The position numbers and the translations under genes were made by a program. DNA of 39,818 nucleotides. Source: a virus (Duplodnaviria > Heunggongvirae > Uroviricota > Caudoviricetes). The DNA lies in IMG/VR virus record IMGVR_UViG_2734482548_000013; one strand, given 5' to 3'. The notes under the pieces were generated by a model. The model was not told the DNA's origin and made no database searches. It worked only from the letters and a program-made list of their open reading frames with translations. Below are positions 2,794 to 18,122 of this stretch, in pieces. The stretch's first letter is position 1. Each line of letters opens with the position of its first letter.

Positions 2794-5386
2794 TTGCATA
2801 TTCCTTAGCCCAGCGGGGCAGTGATAACGTCTTAATAGCTGGCCATTCATCGGTATTGAGGCAGTCAGCCAGGGTTCGCAGATTGCGGTGATATTCCAGC
2901 TGACCTGCCAGTTTTGCTTCTTCGCCCATCATGAAAATTTCAACCGGATAACGTCCGCATTCAATAGTTGTGCTGGCAACCAGAAAAACGAAAGTTGGCT
3001 GCACTCCAAACTGTGCTTCATAACCGTCACTGTAGAATGCATCCTGAACGTGATAGCGGTAGTCGTAATAAGCGGTTTTGAATCGTTGAATATCCGCCGT
3101 AGTTTTCACGTCCATGATCCAGTGAAATTCAGGGATAATTTTGTCCGGACGGCACCGACACAAAATTGCTGTTTCAGGATCTTCCCAGTAAATTGATGAT
3201 TCAGCGTGTCCGGCGCTTTCAACAAGCCATTGCCCCAGCGGCAAAGCCATAACGCTCTGATACATGAGTTCAATTTTCCGGCCTTCTTCGGCAGTGATAA
3301 CCGTTTTTCCTGTGCTTGCGCATTCCCTCAGAAACGCTTTCTCTTCTTCTTTTCCGGAGTTTGTCCGGCGGTTAAATTCAGGTGCTACGATAAAGCGGTT
3401 ACTGAATTCTTCCGGCTCAAGTACCCGGCAGTGGAAAGCGGTTCCTAAATCGAGCGTTTTTGTCTTTGTGGTGTCCACGGGGGCATTTTTACGCCACAAA
3501 TACAGTGCCGGAGTATCAGCAATGTCATCGAGCTGAGACTTACTGACACCGGGACCCGCGTGGTAATTCTCATTCGAAATTCCGTAATAAATACCTGGCT
3601 CTATGTCTTCTACGATTACGGGATCTGCGACTTCGCCAGTTTCATCACTGCAATCGCGATGCGGATCGCTGCCAGCATTCTCATTGTGCGGATGTTCAGC
3701 GCCTTCCATTTCCTCCGGATCATTTTCCTTAGCTTCAACCTGACTCTCTTCATCGAATGTTTCCTGGTATGTTGCGTCGCCCATCACCGCACCACAGTCA
3801 GGGCAGTTATCCCCGCCAGTCTGGCCGCAGGCATTGCAGGCTATTTCCGGTTCCTGTTGCACTACTGGCTCAGGTTGATTCATATCCGGGCTGGTTTTTT
3901 CCGTTTCTGGCTGGTTCTGGTACACACAATCGCGAGTCTGGATCCCCTTTACCCATTTCGGATCGTTCGGGTCGCTAATTCCGTCAACAAATTCACCACG
4001 TGATGCAGCAAGCAATTTATCGGCATCGACAGGATTTTTTGATGGAATGTTTTTCCGGGCTTCATGGAGTTCTGCCCGCAGTTCCTGATATTTCGCATCA
4101 ACAGAATTTACCTGTGACTGAGCATCCAGCGGCTGCGTGTCCTGATGATGTTCAGTTGCGTCCGGTTCCATTGTTTCAGCCTCTCCCTGTTCAACTGCCG
4201 TTGTTCCAGATGGTTGCGGTTTTTCTTCATCATCCTGTTTTCCTTCTTCTGTTACTCGCTGCGGCATCGGGGCAGAGGAGCGACCGCAGGCAATATCCAC
4301 GATTTCCGGATCAGGGTTGGCATGATCGGTTTCAGTCAGTACTTTGTTCAGATATTCAGTGACGTGCGCGGGGATGACCTCGATCCCAATTGGTGCTTCT
4401 TTTACGGACGCAACCACGATGGCGCGGGAATAATCCAGCCCGCCAGGCATGGTGATGAATTTGTCGCGGAAAACAGAAAAGGGCGGTTTATTTTCAGCGA
4501 TAATTTCCTCAATGCGTTTAGCGTGTGCCGGATGAAGGTTATAGATGTCCAGATCCATTGAACGGGCCAGTACGCCAGTGGCTACGTCCCGCGCCAGTGA
4601 CGTCAGATCGTGTACGAAACCTTCGCCGCGATCGGTGAGGTTTCCGCCGCCAGCATTAGCACCGGAAGCCGTGCGAGTGATGTGTGAAACACGATTACCC
4701 TTCATCCACTCTTTTGTCAGCAGTCCTCGATCGGTGTAGTCAGCGTTCAGGTATGCTTCGAAAAAAGCAGTTATCAGTCCCAGGTTTGAATTACCAGGAT
4801 TAGGGAAAACTTTGTCAGTGTCACGAACCAGTTTGTGGAGTTCGCGAATTTCCAGCGGGTCGAGCAGGCTGGTTTTGTGGGAAACAGCCAGGGCAGTAAC
4901 AGCCGGTAGTTCTTCAGCCCGAGCAATGTGTAATGCCTGGAGTCCGTCGCGTGAAACGTGCGTTACCGGTTTTTCGCTGCCGTGTTGAGCAAGCCAACGA
5001 ATGGGCAGTTCCTGGCCAGAAATTGGGAGTAGCATATTCTCCTCAATCTCAGTCATGTCTTCGCCGTTGACGTTGGTATTGCCTTGATAGTGAGCGTTGT
5101 CTGGTGCTGCTCCCGGTTTTAGTTCCCATGTCATGGAGTCTTTGCTGAGTTGATAGCGTTCACTCCAGGTAAAATCGATCTCACCTTCAGCGGGCAGGTC
5201 ATTAACGACAGGAAAATTCGTGGCAACAGCTTTAAAATAGCTGCTCAGTTTTTTACCTGACTTAACGATCAGGTAGTCCAGAGTGGCACAGGTCGATTCA
5301 AAATCGTTGCTTGCCCACAGGACGACGTCAGGTTCACCGGATGATTTTTTCGCTTTCCGTAACAGGAAGAGTGGTTTTGTGCTCAT
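2786..5386 (-). CDS. recE: RecE exonuclease VIII (full length, 866 aa)
   Basis: 866-aa ORF; acidic middle region and C-terminal nuclease domain; immediately upstream of recT on same strand. Confidence 0.93.
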
Positions 5387-7159: not shown

Positions 7160-7311
7160 CTTACTGTGTGCTTCTCCAACCATCGGCGCGCACCAGTTTC
7201 GGTTTTAAATGTTTTGCTTTTGGTATACGTCATGGCAGTGAACGTTCCATCCTGGTTGGGGAACACGCCGCACACCAGGGATTCGTTGTTGCCGAGGTCG
7301 ATTTTTTGCAT
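7156..7311 (-). CDS. ydaF: YdaF-like small protein (51 aa)
   Basis: Hand translation MQKIDLGNNESLVCGVFPNQDGTFTAMTYTKSKTFKTETGARRWLEKHTVS; overlaps the sieB 3' end convergently by 4 nt. Confidence 0.6.
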   Translation of the reverse strand: MQKIDLGNNESLVCGVFPNQDGTFTAMTYTKSKTFKTETGARRWLEKHTVS

Positions 7312-7321
7312 TTTGCGAATC

Positions 7322-7456
7322 TCACATCTTGTTGCTGTGTATAGCGACTTCTGCCTGCCAGAGATCCCAGTCGTTGCTGCGTAAAGCCTGCACAGCCTGG
7401 TTGTAAGTGATACCGCAACAATCCATCAAATACTGAACTACTTCGTAATGCACCAT
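7322..7456 (-). CDS. ydaG: YdaG-like small protein (44 aa)
   Basis: Internal start MVHYEVVQYLMDCCGITYNQAVQALRSNDWDLWQAEVAIHSNKM within track ORF 7322..7504. Confidence 0.6.
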   Translation of the reverse strand: MVHYEVVQYLMDCCGITYNQAVQALRSNDWDLWQAEVAIHSNKM

Positions 7457-7630
7457 CTTATCTCTCCCCTTAACGCCGGGTGGCGGAACTGAAACCTGCT
7501 GCACTGCAAAATCTGAACCCTGCCGTCATGTTCATACGCCTCGGGCTGGCTACTTAACCCCTGACCACTGCCTGGTAACTCGAAGTATTGCCCTGCGTTC
7601 TGTGGGGCGGGGTGGGTTGGTAGGTATATA

Positions 7631-7671
7631 ATGTACTTTGTGTTCATTGATGTAAAGTACTATAAGTACAT
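7631..7671. promoter_or_regulatory. Candidate operator cluster (OL-like): ATGTACTTT ... AAAGTAC tat AAGTACAT inverted repeats downstream of racR
   Basis: Seen directly: inverted and direct copies of the TGTACT core within about 40 bp, in the region that must hold the leftward early promoter. Confidence 0.4.
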
Positions 7672-7746
7672 TTTGTGTGTAAAAAAATGAGATGGGATAA
7701 AGTGAAGCACAAACCCGGAGGGGGACGCTACCGGATTTATGCTGGT

Positions 7747-8166
7747 TTAAGAGGCTTTTTGTTTTTTCTTTCGTGCTAGCTCTTCGTAAATTGCATTGTA
7801 CTTCTGTTTTTTCTCCTCAAGAGTTTTTAAAAGTTCATCTGTCTCACTGTCAGGGAGCTCGTCCAGAAGGTCAATGATGATTTTTTGTCTTGGATTTAAC
7901 TCCTGATAGAAACGTACCTGTCCACTTTCTTCTGTATCCTCTCCCAAAAGATAGGTTGGTGTTGTTCCAATGAGTGTTGCTAATTCCCTTAATTTCTCTC
8001 GGCGAGGAATTGTTTCGCCATTAAACCATTTGCTAACCGCTTTTGGTGTTAATTTCATTCGACGGGCAATTTCTGCCTGCCTTCCATGTTGTTCATAACC
8101 AGCGTTTTCACAGGCTAGCGCAAGCCTACTGGCGAACTCTTTACGCGCTTTATCTTCATGAACCAT
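7747..8166 (-). CDS. racR: RacR prophage repressor (CI-like HTH)
   Basis: HTH segment QAEIARRMKLTPKAVSKWFNGETIP; divergent from the ydaS/ydaT operon; start ambiguous between ATG at 8166 and GTG at 8184. Confidence 0.8.
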   Translation of the reverse strand: MVHEDKARKEFASRLALACENAGYEQHGRQAEIARRMKLTPKAVSKWFNGETIPRREKLRELATLIGTTPTYLLGEDTEESGQVRFYQELNPRQKIIIDLLDELPDSETDELLKTLEEKKQKYNAIYEELARKKKQKAS

Positions 8167-8190
8167 AAGTTCAATGATATTCACTCTTGA

Positions 8191-8221
8191 ATGTACTGTC
8201 AGTTCTGTTATAGCATGTACT
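8191..8221. promoter_or_regulatory. Candidate operator pair (OR-like): two direct ATGTACT copies 24 bp apart in the racR-ydaS divergent intergenic region
   Basis: ATGTACT at about 8191..8197 and 8215..8221, the same core as the cluster at 7631..7671; placement mirrors the CI-flanking operator layout of lambdoid phages. Confidence 0.4.
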
Positions 8222-8245
8222 CAAAGTTCACATTGTGAGGGTGAT

Positions 8246-8500
8246 ATGAACCAGAAAACACTTGAAGATGTAATCAAAACTGTTCGCGTTTCTGTTGTGG
8301 CCGACGTTTGTGGTGTCAGCCAAAGAGCAATCTACAAATGGATGGATAACGGAAAATTGCCTCGCACAGAATATACCGGCGAAACAAATTACGCTGAAAA
8401 AATCGCTCATGCATCAAACGGATTATTTTCTGCTGATGTAATTTTAACTATTGGCAGAAATAAAACTACTACGAAAAAGCTGATGGGAGTTGATTCATGA
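8246..8500 (+). CDS. ydaS: YdaS (Cro-like HTH protein)
   Basis: Start at MNQKTLEDVIKTV with GAGGGTG SD; HTH VADVCGVSQRAIYKWMDNGKLP; first gene of the rightward operon. Confidence 0.7.
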   Translation: MNQKTLEDVIKTVRVSVVADVCGVSQRAIYKWMDNGKLPRTEYTGETNYAEKIAHASNGLFSADVILTIGRNKTTTKKLMGVDS

Positions 8501-11758: not shown

Positions 11759-11914
11759 ACGTTACTAGATCAAAGAGCATTAGTTCATATGTAAATTGAC
11801 ATTTTTCTGGCACAGGGGAGAGCTAGCGTGGTTGTCCGCTTTGTGCCAATAGCGGACATTGCTGGCTCATGGTATGTTAGTTTAAGGAGGCAGGTTATGC
11901 CCTGTATTTCGCTG

Positions 11915-11923
11915 TGGTATAAT
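11915..11923 (+). promoter_or_regulatory. Extended -10 element TGgTATAAT, candidate promoter for the low-GC cassette
   Basis: Exact TATAAT with upstream TG seen in sequence about 34 nt before the GTG start and 18 nt before the AAGGGAG SD. Confidence 0.4.
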
Positions 11924-11956
11924 AGTTGCGCAATTGATACAAGGGAGCGTTACATC

Positions 11957-12919
11957 GTGAAAATTGTTTTCGAGGTTAATGGAAAGAAAGTTCCACTAAA
12001 ATCTTTAAAATACATAAGCAAAAAAGATCAACTCGAAGTAATGAAAAACTGGTTCTTTGAAAACTTTGAAGATCCGGCAAATGCTTGTCCGTATGAAAGT
12101 AGAGAAGGTGGCTATGCTTACATATATGGCGGGCCGTATGATGCGAGCGAAGAACTACAATCCATCTTCGGTCAATATGTTAAATCTGAGTATATTGAGG
12201 AATTAGTAGATGAATTACAAACACAATGTTTTGACTGGTCTGGAAACTCAAATAATATAGATGATTGGTACGATGATGATATCTACGACGCTGTAACGTC
12301 TTCCGGTAATCCGTATTTAAAATTCATTGATAATATCGATAAAATAAAAAAACTTGCAAAAGATAAAACTGAACAACAGCAAAAAAACCACTTGCTTAGT
12401 TTGCTCTACACGAATGTTATTACAGCTTTGGAAACGCTTTATGTTGAGCTATTCATTAATTCTATAGAGAAAGATGATGTCTACATAGCCAATTGTATAG
12501 AAAAAGGTAAGACTGAATTTAAAGTAAGCAAAGATATTGCTGCGTTGCCTTTCAAGGGTGAACCCATCGAGAAAATTAGGGGAGAGCTAATCAGGTCAAT
12601 CAAGGAACACTTGATCAGTGCAAGCTGGCATAGCACTAAAAAGGTAATCGACCGCTATGAAGCTACATTCGATATAAAAGTACAAAAAGACTGTCCGATA
12701 GAAGCTATTGAATTGGCAACCCTCAATCGAAATCACTTAGTGCATCGTGGTGGAAAGGATAAAGAAGGGAACCTCGTAGTGATTACAGACCAGGATCTTG
12801 AAACGCTGATTGAAAATGCATCGAACCTGGCAATTATGCTCTACAACAGTTTAAATGTAGCAACGAATAAAACCACCATTTTGCAACCAGATGACAAACC
12901 GTTCATTCATGAATTTTAA
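11957..12919 (+). CDS. Unknown protein A of the low-GC two-gene cassette (about 320 aa); family not recognised; possible HEPN-like R-x4-H (NRNHLVHRGG)
   Basis: Long ORF in strongly AT-rich DNA (14 of 60 G+C on the line starting 12301); GTG start at 11957 after an AAGGGAG SD; alternative ATG at 11897 after AAGGAGG; the track start 11828 is probably an upstream read-through. Confidence 0.6.
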   Translation: MKIVFEVNGKKVPLKSLKYISKKDQLEVMKNWFFENFEDPANACPYESREGGYAYIYGGPYDASEELQSIFGQYVKSEYIEELVDELQTQCFDWSGNSNNIDDWYDDDIYDAVTSSGNPYLKFIDNIDKIKKLAKDKTEQQQKNHLLSLLYTNVITALETLYVELFINSIEKDDVYIANCIEKGKTEFKVSKDIAALPFKGEPIEKIRGELIRSIKEHLISASWHSTKKVIDRYEATFDIKVQKDCPIEAIELATLNRNHLVHRGGKDKEGNLVVITDQDLETLIENASNLAIMLYNSLNVATNKTTILQPDDKPFIHEF

Positions 12920-12934
12920 TAGCGCAGGTCATAC

Positions 12935-13936
12935 ATGGATATTCGCACACGAAAGACAAAATTTTTAGAGTCGTTAGATTCAACTGAAGTGATACGCAAA
13001 GCAGTAAGTCTCGCTATAGATTGCATTATTGATAATCATAATAGTAATGAAGATACCCCCTTAGTTATTACCAGCTATGATGATCTCTGTAGAATCCAGG
13101 TGCTAAATTATGTACAGGAGTTTTGCGAAGCTGCATTCCCTGATATGGATGAATATTACTTTAGTCCTAACATACTTCGCATCAACGGCAAGACTAGTGA
13201 AGAAGCTTGTATTAACTTAATTAAACTCTTAAGAAGTACAAAAGGCATGCTATTCTGGTCCGATGCCCCATCGTGGTTCGCTAGCCTCCCCGACGGATTA
13301 TTCCATGTTGTTAACATTGATCAAAAAATCGTTACTCGCGGCCTTAATAAGAAAAACTCTAAGCCGACAATAATCAATAAAGATTACAGTGTAGATACAC
13401 TACTATCAGAGCTATTTTTGAATGGCGCACACATGGAGCAACCCAACGTACACAACGTTTCTGAGGGAAACATGAAGTTCTATGATGAATGCCATGCTGG
13501 ATTAATCAGACCAATACCCGCTCCAATAGGCGCGTCATACGATGAAGAGATCACAATTAATTCTCCAGATTGGCAAAAGCTCGCGTGTGTAGCTTTACGC
13601 CGCTATCAGTCGAAGGAATGTCATGACGGAATGCAATGGGATACAACCGATCATGGTTGGACTGATGTAATCGCGTATCCATTCGTCGAAGAAATACAAT
13701 CAATGGATAATAGTGGTTATCGACAATGTTTAGTTGGGCTGGTCACAATAAACAATTCAAATGCAAATTCTCCGTACCTATCTACCGTTTGGATACATCC
13801 ATTTTATCGCAGGAGAGGGTTATTAAGTAAGTTATGGCCAAAATTACAAGAGTTATATGGAAGTAACTTCGAAATTGAGCGACCTAATGAAAATATGAAA
13901 GCATTTCTGAAAAGTGCGAAACACGCAGATTACTAA
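12935..13936 (+). CDS. Unknown protein B of the low-GC cassette (333 aa) with a C-terminal GNAT-like acyltransferase motif
   Basis: ATG 15 nt after the gene A stop (operon); C-terminal segment CLVGLVTINNS...VWIHPFYRRRGLLSKLWPKLQEL resembles GNAT motif A; AT-rich (18 of 60 G+C on the line starting 13021). Confidence 0.65.
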   Translation: MDIRTRKTKFLESLDSTEVIRKAVSLAIDCIIDNHNSNEDTPLVITSYDDLCRIQVLNYVQEFCEAAFPDMDEYYFSPNILRINGKTSEEACINLIKLLRSTKGMLFWSDAPSWFASLPDGLFHVVNIDQKIVTRGLNKKNSKPTIINKDYSVDTLLSELFLNGAHMEQPNVHNVSEGNMKFYDECHAGLIRPIPAPIGASYDEEITINSPDWQKLACVALRRYQSKECHDGMQWDTTDHGWTDVIAYPFVEEIQSMDNSGYRQCLVGLVTINNSNANSPYLSTVWIHPFYRRRGLLSKLWPKLQELYGSNFEIERPNENMKAFLKSAKHADY

Positions 13937-14490
13937 TTTATGAATCAGTCTGTGGAGTTAGGGTTGGTGTGAACAAGTAGGGTAAGAGCCTCAACGTGAT
14001 GCTATGCCGACCTGCTCCCTGAGAATTCACACAGAAGGCTGCTAGCAATGTCTGCAGATCGCTCAAAGCGGACTAAAATGTTGGCTTGTTTCTGACTTAG
14101 AGCATTTAAGGAAGTGCTGGTGGTGACTGGTTGTTGTGTTCCATTTCTACAGAATAAAATCACAGAAACTATACCCAATAGTTGTATTGAATCACTGACG
14201 AGACAGCCTCATATTTATCAGGACTGGTGTGCGTCTAATACAGGGGGTTGTCGTGCTGGTTCTCAAATGTGCGCTGGCTATTGCGGCTGTAATGGCAATT
14301 TATTGTCTTGCTGTTGTTCTTATGGAGCGGCTTTCTGATTGATTACATACTGGCTAGAAAAAAGGTGTTACCTTGGTTTATCTTTGTCCGGCAAGGTGCG
14401 CTCATTAATCTTAAGTAAATTTATTGCTCAAGTATTCAGATTACTTCTTATGGTTGAAGTCTCCTGTCAATGTAGAACCAATATATTTAC

Positions 14491-14528
14491 AAAAATGAGA
14501 CCCGTCGGGGATAGCCCTGCCGGGTCTG
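14491..14528 (-). terminator. Rho-independent terminator downstream of the yeaR-like gene
   Basis: GAGACCCG ... CGGGTCT stem with inner GGGG/CCC pairing, followed on the minus strand by a U-run. Confidence 0.5.
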
Positions 14529-14556
14529 ACTGTTAAAGCATTTTTAATATGATCAT

Positions 14557-14895
14557 CTATTTTTTGGTGCTATAGACTTTTTCGCCCGAAAAGTCTGGAG
14601 CGACCCAAAAGTTAATATTAAACTGAGCATCATCGCTTAGTTCAACACGGTGCCAGTATTGTGGTGGGCTTGTTGCAAAAGCGCCAGCATTAATGACTAC
14701 TTTTATCTCCGGTTCAGTAGCATTCTCATCAGTAAAACCATAATATGTTACAGTGCCTTCCATTACGCACAACTGCCCAAAAACACCTGCTGCTGTATTA
14801 TGATGTGTTAATAACGCTGAAGGTACGTTCTCTTTTGTGAAGAACGGAGTTGAGCGTTTGATTACCCAATCTTTAGGAATTCTCTTGTGTGTCAT
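14557..14895 (-). CDS. YeaR-like DUF1971 protein
   Basis: Start at MTHKRIPKDWVIKRSTPFFTKENVP with GGAGGAGG SD; resemblance to E. coli YeaR (RSTPFW..., FNIDFFV motifs) recalled from memory; opposite strand to the flanking phage genes. Confidence 0.6.
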   Translation of the reverse strand: MTHKRIPKDWVIKRSTPFFTKENVPSALLTHHNTAAGVFGQLCVMEGTVTYYGFTDENATEPEIKVVINAGAFATSPPQYWHRVELSDDAQFNINFWVAPDFSGEKVYSTKK

Positions 14896-15708
14896 AACCA
14901 CCTCCTCCAAAACATGCATTAAAAATGCATCTTTTGGAGGGTTATGTCAAGCTGTTATGAAACACATAATTGATATGTTGATTAGAGGAGAAGATAGAAT
15001 AAATATGGTTGTTTTTCGTATAACTATTTGTTTTACTTTTAGTTTATGCATTCTGTGTGTTAGGAATAAGTTATTAAAGTTTAATCAAAAAATCTCGATG
15101 TAGTCCACATAGATTACTGTTACTGAACCTTATTGTGTGTATTAGTTGTGTTCTGAAATTTCAGCTTAATTATTTATGATGTATTTTTTAACGATAAATA
15201 TTTTCCCAGGATACCTTTACTGTGTATATAAATAAATTATATACGCATAAATAATGTAAAGGCGTCCTTTTAGATATATCTTATCAAATGTTAATGACTT
15301 GAGTGGGAAATATGATTCCAGCAACTTATCATGTGGCTACTTTATAAAAATAATGCCCATATAAAACAACAAGCGAAAAGGATTACGGATAAAAAAGGAG
15401 CGAGATGTGCGAACTTGTTATTTTCCATGTTTAACCACCTTAAATAATTGATGATGACGGGATGATTGCATCTGTAATGCTTTTATTGAAATGTTATGAT
15501 AAAAAAGAACTTTTGCATAACATTAAAATGTAATTTATCTAATCGTTTTTAATAATAAGTGTCGTATTTCTATCCTTGTACCAGCTATTTGATATGTAGT
15601 GTTTGTTCATGCTATGTGGGGCTTTACACCATAGCCAGTTTATTTATACTTTATTCGTCAGCCTGAACAACTGGCATCTGCTGCGCTGCGCCATCGAGAG
15701 ATTGAGAA

Positions 15709-17590: not shown

Positions 17591-18122
17591 GGGCTGGTTT
17601 ATTGTATGCCAAATGATTATTAAAAAGGTTGTGTTAATAACAAGATCCGAAATAATATGCCTGCATATTTTTATCTTGCTTATATTCTGCATATTGTGCA
17701 TAGCAGGCTCATCCCTGCAATCAAAACTGTATGATGAGTATTTTTTGTTTTCCTTTTTTCCAGTCATCTGATGATGACCTGCTTCTTTTTAATCCGGATC
17801 GACATCAGTTTTTTAAGATAATTCCTGCGAGTTATATGCATAAATGCCACAAACTCCGCATTTTATGTGGTTGGGAGTTGCCGGGCGCGCAGTGAGTTTG
17901 CTAAGAAAACTCCTGCATGGTGAATCCCCCTGTGCGGTGGGGTGATACCATTAACCTTTTCTGTCGCCGACAGGTATCACGAACATTTTGTTCACCGGGA
18001 GGCACCCGGCACCATGCACTTCAATAGATTCTCTCCACATTATGGATATTCTTTCAGAATATCCCACGCAGACTTTGTGTAAATGTTAACAAATGTGCGT
18101 TTTATTTGATCTGATTCGCTGT

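Follow-up and report, generated by a model that had tools for sequence, protein, structure and literature searches.

The subject of this work is a stretch of viral DNA of 39,818 nucleotides (nt), the IMG/VR record IMGVR_UViG_2734482548_000013, referred to below at its whole length as the window, and within it a cassette of two adjacent plus-strand genes, named here A and B, which lie between a DUF977 gene and the nin module of a lambdoid prophage. An earlier note, written from the letters of the DNA, had taken this pair for an undescribed anti-phage or toxin-like system. According to our analysis the anti-phage part of that suggestion holds and the word undescribed does not: judged by its sequence, the cassette is DS-33, i.e. 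DefensePredictor-discovered system 33, an anti-phage system already described (DeWeirdt et al., Science 2026, PMC13092281; preprint 10.1101/2025.01.08.631726). As the best explanation of the whole we consider it very probable that the cassette is DS-33 cargo, in which A is a sensor-effector with an RNA-cleaving HEPN domain and B is a co-transferred accessory. That A is necessary for the defence, and that the defence depends on R258 of A and not on B, is shown in PMC13092281. The elements on which the argument turns are the following, with amino acids abbreviated as aa and the G+C fraction as GC.

11861..14058, plus strand: DS-33 cargo cassette, about 2.2 kb, GC 0.387, with borders from prophage comparison
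11957..12919, plus strand: gene A (DS-33A), 320 aa, GTG start, HEPN/RES-NTD1 followed by HEPN, the defence effector
12920..12934, plus strand: A-B intergenic spacer, 15 nt without exception in 28 paired loci, among them Aeromonas copies with 86% (A) and 79% (B) protein identity
12935..13936, plus strand: gene B (DS-33B), 333 aa, with a GNAT fold at its C-terminus after an N-terminal domain specific to the family; the defence measured so far does not require it

The open reading frames (ORFs) of about 320 and 333 aa, and the 15 nt which the earlier note had counted from the stop of the first to the start of the second, are found just as it described them. Protein A of the window is identical to DS-33A of Table S8 in PMC13092281 over 320 of 320 residues, and protein B to DS-33B (WP_000354965.1, same table) over 332 of 333, the only difference being P289 in the window against L289 in the tested clone; the gene order and the single transcription unit of DS-33 are matched by the window pair as well. 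In Table S6 of PMC13092281 the unit is listed as 'GNAT' (WP_014639476.1 + WP_000354965.1), with defensive = TRUE, the name DS-33 and the category 'predicted novel defense gene'. The identical locus bears WP_014639476.1 in RefSeq as well, and it is this 320-aa version that the Prokaryotic Genome Annotation Pipeline annotates; the mechanical ORF list gives for the same frame 363 aa from position 11828. The tested unit was carried on a plasmid in MG1655, whereas the window copy stands in an apparently complete Rac-type prophage. The main text of PMC13092281 does not discuss DS-33 individually and counts it only among the validated systems with HEPN domains, and the WP accessions, which had no match in the main texts of the literature, were found in the supplementary tables of PMC13092281 only. 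No functional name comes from PADLOC, NCBIfam or PHROGs either: PADLOC gave chance-level matches only, NCBIfam none for A, and the PHROGs matches (17908 and 16994) are those of 'unknown function'.

The phenotypes of Table S7 in PMC13092281 derive from two replicate plaque assays on the near-identical published clone, carried on a plasmid in MG1655. The means, in log10 units of protection, were computed by us.

Wild type DS-33: T7 3.2, T3 2.9, Bas67 3.0, Bas26 5.5, T5 about 0.4
HEPN gene (A) deleted: T7, T3 and Bas67 about 0, Bas26 about 0.4, T5 about 0.3
R258A: T7 0.6, T3 0.0, Bas67 0.3, Bas26 0.6, T5 0.3
GNAT gene (B) deleted: T7 4.5, T3 3.3, Bas67 3.7, Bas26 5.0, T5 1.1

The published protection amounts to 2-6 logs against T7, T3, Bas67 and Bas26, is lost upon deletion of A or upon the R258A substitution, and is kept upon deletion of B (PMC13092281). 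The cloning and the mutation of the motif of A, which the earlier note had proposed as experiments, are thus already contained in that publication, together with the gene deletions, and with a defence dependent on A and R258. The DefensePredictor log-odds of its Table S8 are 9.45 for A and 1.08 for B, the latter positive and low.

Protein A is a HEPN protein and the R-x4-H is its functional motif. Its parts are given here.

12032..12232, plus strand: HEPN/RES N-terminal domain 1 (aa 26-92; Pfam PF18870), presumed sensor or regulatory module
12374..12880, plus strand: HEPN domain (about aa 140-308), bearing the R-x4-H
12728..12748, plus strand: catalytic-type motif R258-N-H-L-V-H263-R264 (R-x4-H), known from conservation and the published R258A

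Protein A, whose AlphaFold2 model reaches a predicted local distance difference test score (pLDDT) of 88, has the all-alpha up-down helical bundle fold of the HEPN superfamily, and the R-x4-6-H motif of that superfamily is present as NRNHLVHRGG (R258-x4-H263). R258, H263 and R264 are invariant in 64 A homologs, at identities going down to 26%, and R258A abolishes the defence (PMC13092281, Table S7), so the motif, in which the earlier note saw a weak resemblance, is a functional one. Pfam PF18870 matches protein A of the window at 22.2 bits (E = 1.9e-4), under its 27.4-bit gathering score, and matches 58 of the 64 homologs at E<=0.01. For PF18735 (RiboL-PSP-HEPN) the window protein gives no match at E<=1 and 31 of the 64 homologs do match, the best at E = 7e-11, its membership in this family being by transitive homology only; profile-versus-PDB sequence searches with A and B returned nothing meaningful. 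The HEPN/RES-NTD1 is elsewhere fused to a PIN_8/PIN_12 nuclease, in a metagenome-assembled genome (MAG) of Babeliaceae (L074 376-1623), and it is found with S1 and RNase E/G segments in a Bradyrhizobium ORF (L069 5941-8043), which may be two genes or a frameshift; its presence on PIN nucleases, and possibly next to S1 and RNase E/G, agrees with the picture of a portable module, sensory or regulatory, that serves RNA-targeting effectors. A reading of the letters had, in sum, picked out a real defence system together with its catalytic motif, and a system already published and validated as DS-33.

We suggest that A would work as a single-polypeptide sensor-effector, in which the N-terminal HEPN/RES-NTD1 may hold the HEPN domain inactive until a cue is received from infection by T7-like phages or certain siphophages. 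The activated HEPN domain, probably dimeric, would then cleave RNA (mRNA, tRNA or rRNA), and this cleavage would stop phage production either by abortion of the infected cell or by degradation of phage transcripts. B, a predicted GNAT-fold acyltransferase with a private N-terminal domain, would be a co-transferred accessory outside the core mechanism; it most likely acetylates a protein or a small molecule, with the possible result of a mild damping of A, or of an action against other phages or under other conditions.

Several points weigh against this scheme and are best stated together. The dependence on R258 is compatible with any HEPN-type chemistry, the metal-independent RNase activity of the HEPN superfamily being for A a prediction, and the one line of evidence that suggests a sensor role for NTD1 is domain shuffling. 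The scores of the window's own protein A stay below the Pfam gathering thresholds, and a full-length Foldseek search with A against PDB gave no significant match. The sufficiency of A is taken from a B-deletion construct that was derived from the L289-B clone, one which does not carry the consensus P289 B. The deletion of B, finally, raised protection over the wild type by a mean of 0.54 log, a difference short of significance (p = 0.06 in the t-test, 0.16 in the Wilcoxon test) that could come from an artefact of expression.

Among the known systems the closest to A are other HEPN proteins. The RiboL-PSP-HEPN family (PF18735) has been described as a distant relative of AbiD/AbiF (Anantharaman et al. 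2013, PMC3710099), and A resembles the AbiD/AbiF-type (Abi_2) proteins in that it is also a stand-alone HEPN protein with an R-x4-H that gives phage resistance; Abi_2 (PF07751) itself has no match in A at E<=1 and none among the 64 homologs at E<=0.01. From the RiboL-PSP-HEPN proteins A differs by having the HEPN/RES-NTD1 at its N-terminus in place of the L-PSP fusion. Table S8 of PMC13092281 records a remote HHblits match of DS-33A to the PD-T4-2_B cluster of RiboL-PSP-HEPN proteins (probability 96.1, 55% coverage), and in our PADLOC-DB v2 scan the PD-T4-2 models (Vassallo et al. 2022) matched neither A nor B at E<=1; PD-T4-2 was found by T4 selection, whereas DS-33 acts on T7, T3, Bas26 and Bas67.

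A is normally a stand-alone gene. In 57 genome loci with full-length relatives of A, which cover Gammaproteobacteria, Acidobacteriota, Chloroflexota, Cyanobacteria, Desulfobacterota and others, it stands without B in 55, and B is adjacent only in two near-identical copies; no conserved partner of A was found among the neighbours of these 57 loci, no further family of neighbours being shared by more than 3 of them. The stand-alone state of A is consistent with the published result of the B deletion. The A-B pair was seen only in the Enterobacterales/Aeromonas lineage. Synonymous divergence (dS) between E. coli and Aeromonas is there equal for the two genes, 0.41 for A and 0.46 for B, and the ratio of nonsynonymous to synonymous divergence (dN/dS) shows purifying selection on both (0.13-0.16 for A, 0.24-0.36 for B); these values, together with the fixed spacer, indicate that the pair moves as a unit and that B is maintained. 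The GNAT gene B is a lineage-specific add-on to a widespread stand-alone module of HEPN/RES-NTD1 and HEPN. The earlier note had regarded the two genes as one functional system, and had asked whether they are conserved as a unit in unrelated prophages. The 28 paired loci show such a conservation within the lineage of Enterobacterales and Aeromonas; as a functional system the pair is not obligate, A defending alone and the two genes being apart in most other genomes.

Two settings from this lineage deserve a description of their own. In Aeromonas caviae the A-B pair is located in a relaxase-bearing mobilisable element, beside SIR2 and cREC_REC genes (L116-L118, about 7200-8300, minus strand), and these surroundings look like a small defence island. 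In islands of Citrobacter and Enterobacter the C-terminal ~77 codons of A precede an intact B (L112-L115, about 4752-4982), i.e. the defence gene A was lost and the GNAT gene B was kept.

It would be tempting to see A and B as a toxin-antitoxin-like pair, where B neutralises the HEPN toxin A by acetylation (compare MNT, which AMPylates HEPN toxins) or by binding, and infection relieves the block. The strictly kept 15-nt spacing and a dS equal for both genes across E. coli, Serratia and Aeromonas speak for it, and the equal or somewhat stronger protection in the absence of B (the mean gain of 0.54 log) has the direction expected of a negative regulator, with the tested L289 B being perhaps a hypomorph that masks a larger effect. 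We find such an arrangement very unlikely, nevertheless, as A does without B or any other conserved neighbour in 55 of the 57 loci and hence needs no antitoxin, the B-deletion strain was built and plated normally, the effect of this deletion does not reach statistical significance, and B occurs without A in several genera; moreover, Citrobacter and Enterobacter lost A and not B, the opposite of an addiction logic were B only an antitoxin. In its obligate form we reject this toxin-antitoxin pairing, since A stands alone nearly everywhere and the clone lacking B both survives and defends. From type VII HEPN-MNT toxin-antitoxin systems the pair differs as well: the partner of A has a GNAT fold and is not a nucleotidyltransferase, it is dispensable, and A goes without it in most genomes. 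A co-transferred accessory remains our preferred description of B.

Protein B is a GNAT-fold protein with acyl transfer as its predicted activity, and the GNAT-like character that the earlier note ascribed to it is borne out by the fold. Two parts of B are given here.

13547..13933, plus strand: the GNAT fold of B, about aa 205-333, which contains the acetyl-CoA-type motif RRRG
13799..13801, plus strand: codon P289 of B, where the tested clone WP_000354965.1 has L

Protein B, whose AlphaFold2 model has a pLDDT of 90.4, has the alpha/beta fold of GNAT proteins, and VWIHPFYRRRGLLSKLW is present in the protein as it was quoted in the earlier note. Pfam Acetyltransf_1 scores B at 19.9 bits with a cut-off of 20.7, and 19 of 47 B homologs match it. 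Where the acetyl-CoA motif would be R/Q-x-x-G-x-G/A, B has R292-R-R-G295-L-L, the last position being L and not G/A; R292 is invariant, and G295 is kept in 38 of the 47 homologs. The family is small (66 matches at 90% clustering) and restricted to Gammaproteobacteria. An exhaustive HMMER search for other architectures with the N-terminal 200 aa of B gave the same ~330-aa family and fragments only, with 21 representatives bearing the domain. As a separate observation, residues 160-199 of B match a 570-aa protein (P0197) 10 times over, which may point to a repeat protein or to an artefact of low complexity.

B may also be compared with the GNAT-RHH (ribbon-helix-helix) toxin-antitoxin systems TacT, AtaT and ItaT, with which it shares being a GNAT-fold protein on a mobile element. 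It differs from them in its length of 333 aa, in a unique 200-aa N-terminal domain and in that no RHH or other small partner gene was found at the examined B loci, nor any sign of toxicity. A reading of B as a TacT-like GNAT toxin was rejected.

Position 289, directly before the RRRG, is a proline in all 46 aligned homologs and at all 43 loci compared, and L in WP_000354965.1. Since L289 replaces an invariant proline, the published comparison of the wild type with the B deletion may have used an impaired (hypomorphic) B. From here one may imagine that consensus B does regulate the HEPN effector, or the immunity of the prophage itself against that effector, and that L289 masked this role in the published test; consensus B would acetylate A, or the trigger or target of A, and set the threshold of activation. 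We hold this for quite unlikely. If true, consensus B might spare the resident Rac-type prophage when the latter is induced, and the AMPylation of HEPN-MNT would have in it a counterpart based on acetylation.

The company that B keeps elsewhere bears on two further explanations. Solo relatives of B were found in a Serratia integrative and conjugative element (ICE), in a Mu-like prophage of Motilimonas, in Marinomonas (beside Abi_2), in Idiomarina and in Shewanella, and on one metagenomic contig B is flanked by TerB/BrxC-like/helicase genes on one side and by Mrr and HEPN_Toprim_N genes on the other. It is possible, though rather doubtful, that B is an independent gene of defence or counter-counter-defence linked to A, acting upon phages outside the five used with the mutants or upon phage inhibitors of A. 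Relatives of B lie beside Abi_2, Mrr_cat, TerB/BrxC-like/helicase, HEPN_Toprim_N, ParE and SIR2/cREC, inside ICEs and prophages, B is under purifying selection, and its DefensePredictor log-odds, while low in comparison with those of A (1.08 against 9.45; PMC13092281), are positive. Yet B alone, with A deleted, gave no protection against T7, T5, T3, Bas67 and Bas26, be it in the L289 allele (PMC13092281), B has no PADLOC match, and its family is small and confined to Gammaproteobacteria. The same dispensability of B for the DS-33 defence would suit an unrelated passenger, for instance an acetyltransferase of metabolism or detoxification that plays no part in the conflict of phage and host, which we think improbable, as every relative of B that was located lies either within a mobile element or in surroundings of the defence type, the private N-terminal domain of B is found nowhere else, and B follows a defence gene at an operonic distance that is kept across genera. 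We stay with B as a co-transferred accessory of DS-33. The interest that remains after PMC13092281 is modest and concerns the role of the GNAT partner B and the trigger and RNA target of A.

Its low GC and the sharp borders of its slot, a variable one in a lambdoid prophage, mark the cassette as horizontally acquired cargo. The window is a Rac-type lambdoid prophage, apparently complete and integrated adjoining ttcA, which by annotation and Pfam contains intR/xisR, ralR, recET, kilR, sieB, a cI/cro-type switch, ydaT, ydaU, ydaV, the DUF1627 and DUF977 genes and then nin-type genes, with A and B on the plus strand between the DUF977 gene and the nin module. A GC of 0.387 for the cassette (0.361 in gene A, 0.391 in gene B) against 0.498 in ydaU..DUF977 and 0.491 in the nin genes agrees with the AT-rich composition seen in the earlier note, and its cargo position in a lambdoid prophage proved to be a variable slot. 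The AT-rich tract exceeds the cassette, the adjacent 1.65 kb (14059-15708) having a GC of 0.359. The deletion that the note placed at this point in K-12 Rac is there too: K-12 Rac has ydaV, a truncated ydaW, rzpR' and trkG without this region.

On the left, when the window is aligned with four prophages carrying other cargo, the homology of the backbone spans the end of the DUF977 gene and an inverted repeat and ends at ~11860; past this point the other prophages differ, having a 945-nt or 810-nt minus-strand hypothetical gene and then hokD, or a truncation of the prophage into chromosomal genes. On the right, about 2000 genomes match the backbone again from ~14059 on, at position 123 of the query 13937-15708. 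Of 5426 complete E. coli genomes, 205 have the cassette in full, always annotated as 'hypothetical protein (x2)'; in ~700 further genomes the match is confined to the first ~100 bp of the stretch singled out in the earlier note (11760-13940). A megablast of the phage collection matched the 100-bp backbone leader only and found no sequenced phage with the cassette; IMG/VR prophage contigs do carry it.

The leader of the cassette contains three signals which the earlier note had assigned to the cassette itself.

11834..11857, plus strand: inverted repeat GTCCGCT-N10-AGCGGAC with 7-bp arms, which closes the conserved backbone behind the DUF977 gene and marks the slot's left junction
11915-11923, plus strand: putative extended -10 TGGTATAAT for gene A, an exact match, with promoter function inferred
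11941..11947, plus strand: Shine-Dalgarno sequence (SD) AAGGGAG, 9 nt before the GTG of gene A, with AAGGAG or AATGGAG in other genera

That assignment is right for the extended -10 and the SD, which travel with gene A, and wrong for the inverted repeat, which belongs to the phage backbone and junction. The TG-n-TAyAAT, then AGTTGCG, the SD and the GTG start are kept upstream of gene A in the Serratia grimesii and Aeromonas caviae copies, and it is by this conservation that -10, SD and start are seen to move together with the gene. Taken alone, the extended -10 motif is no rarer than chance (2 observed in the window against 1.36 expected); no -35 for gene A was called by the promoter scanner, and the scan for consensus promoters and terminators gave nothing above the shuffled expectation, the extended -10 being missed for want of a -35. 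The transcription units in PMC13092281 were cloned with their predicted native promoter region. The inverted repeat occurs once in the window, with 0 expected by chance, its hairpin folds at -22 kcal/mol (z = -2.7), and it is common to prophages with unrelated cargo. It has no T-run after it and therefore is not a canonical terminator. As a cassette-specific regulatory element the hairpin was rejected, being conserved next to other cargo, with the homology ending just past it. Rfam scans in and beside the cassette, at gathering thresholds and at E<=1, gave nothing credible.

Beyond the text of PMC13092281 our analysis adds the stand-alone spread of A with a co-inherited B, the L289 in the tested B, and a sharp-bordered slot that accepts other cargo. 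In other Rac/Qin-type prophages this slot, which follows the DUF977 gene and the conserved hairpin, holds different hypothetical genes (WP_001678528.1, WP_000161640.1). With the hairpin as its left mark, the slot and its unannotated cargo may be mined for further systems, and the first candidates are listed here.

L002 5134-6078, L003 5151-5960 and L004 5145-5954, minus strand: alternative slot cargo genes, candidate further cargo or defence genes

A few smaller observations belong to the surroundings of the cassette. Right of it, an unannotated segment of ~296 bp (14059-14354) is found at ~90% identity in roughly 2000 E. coli genomes, whichever cargo stands before it; Rfam does not match this segment, it contains no convincing ORF, and it may be the right-hand junction of the slot or a regulatory element. 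A further ~750 bp with a GC of 0.27-0.31 and no annotated gene (~14900-15650) separates the DUF1367 nin gene (from 15709 on) from a divergently oriented DUF1971/TehB-like gene on the minus strand (14557-14919). A 3.3-kb contig of an actinobacterial MAG, labelled Collinsella sp. (L006, JAIHTM010000277.1), carries the E. coli cassette at 100% identity and is most likely a binning contaminant. Elsewhere in the prophage Rfam recognises the RalA antitoxin small RNA at 1557-1735 (225 bits) and the small RNA STnc100 at 17885-18071 (86.6 bits).

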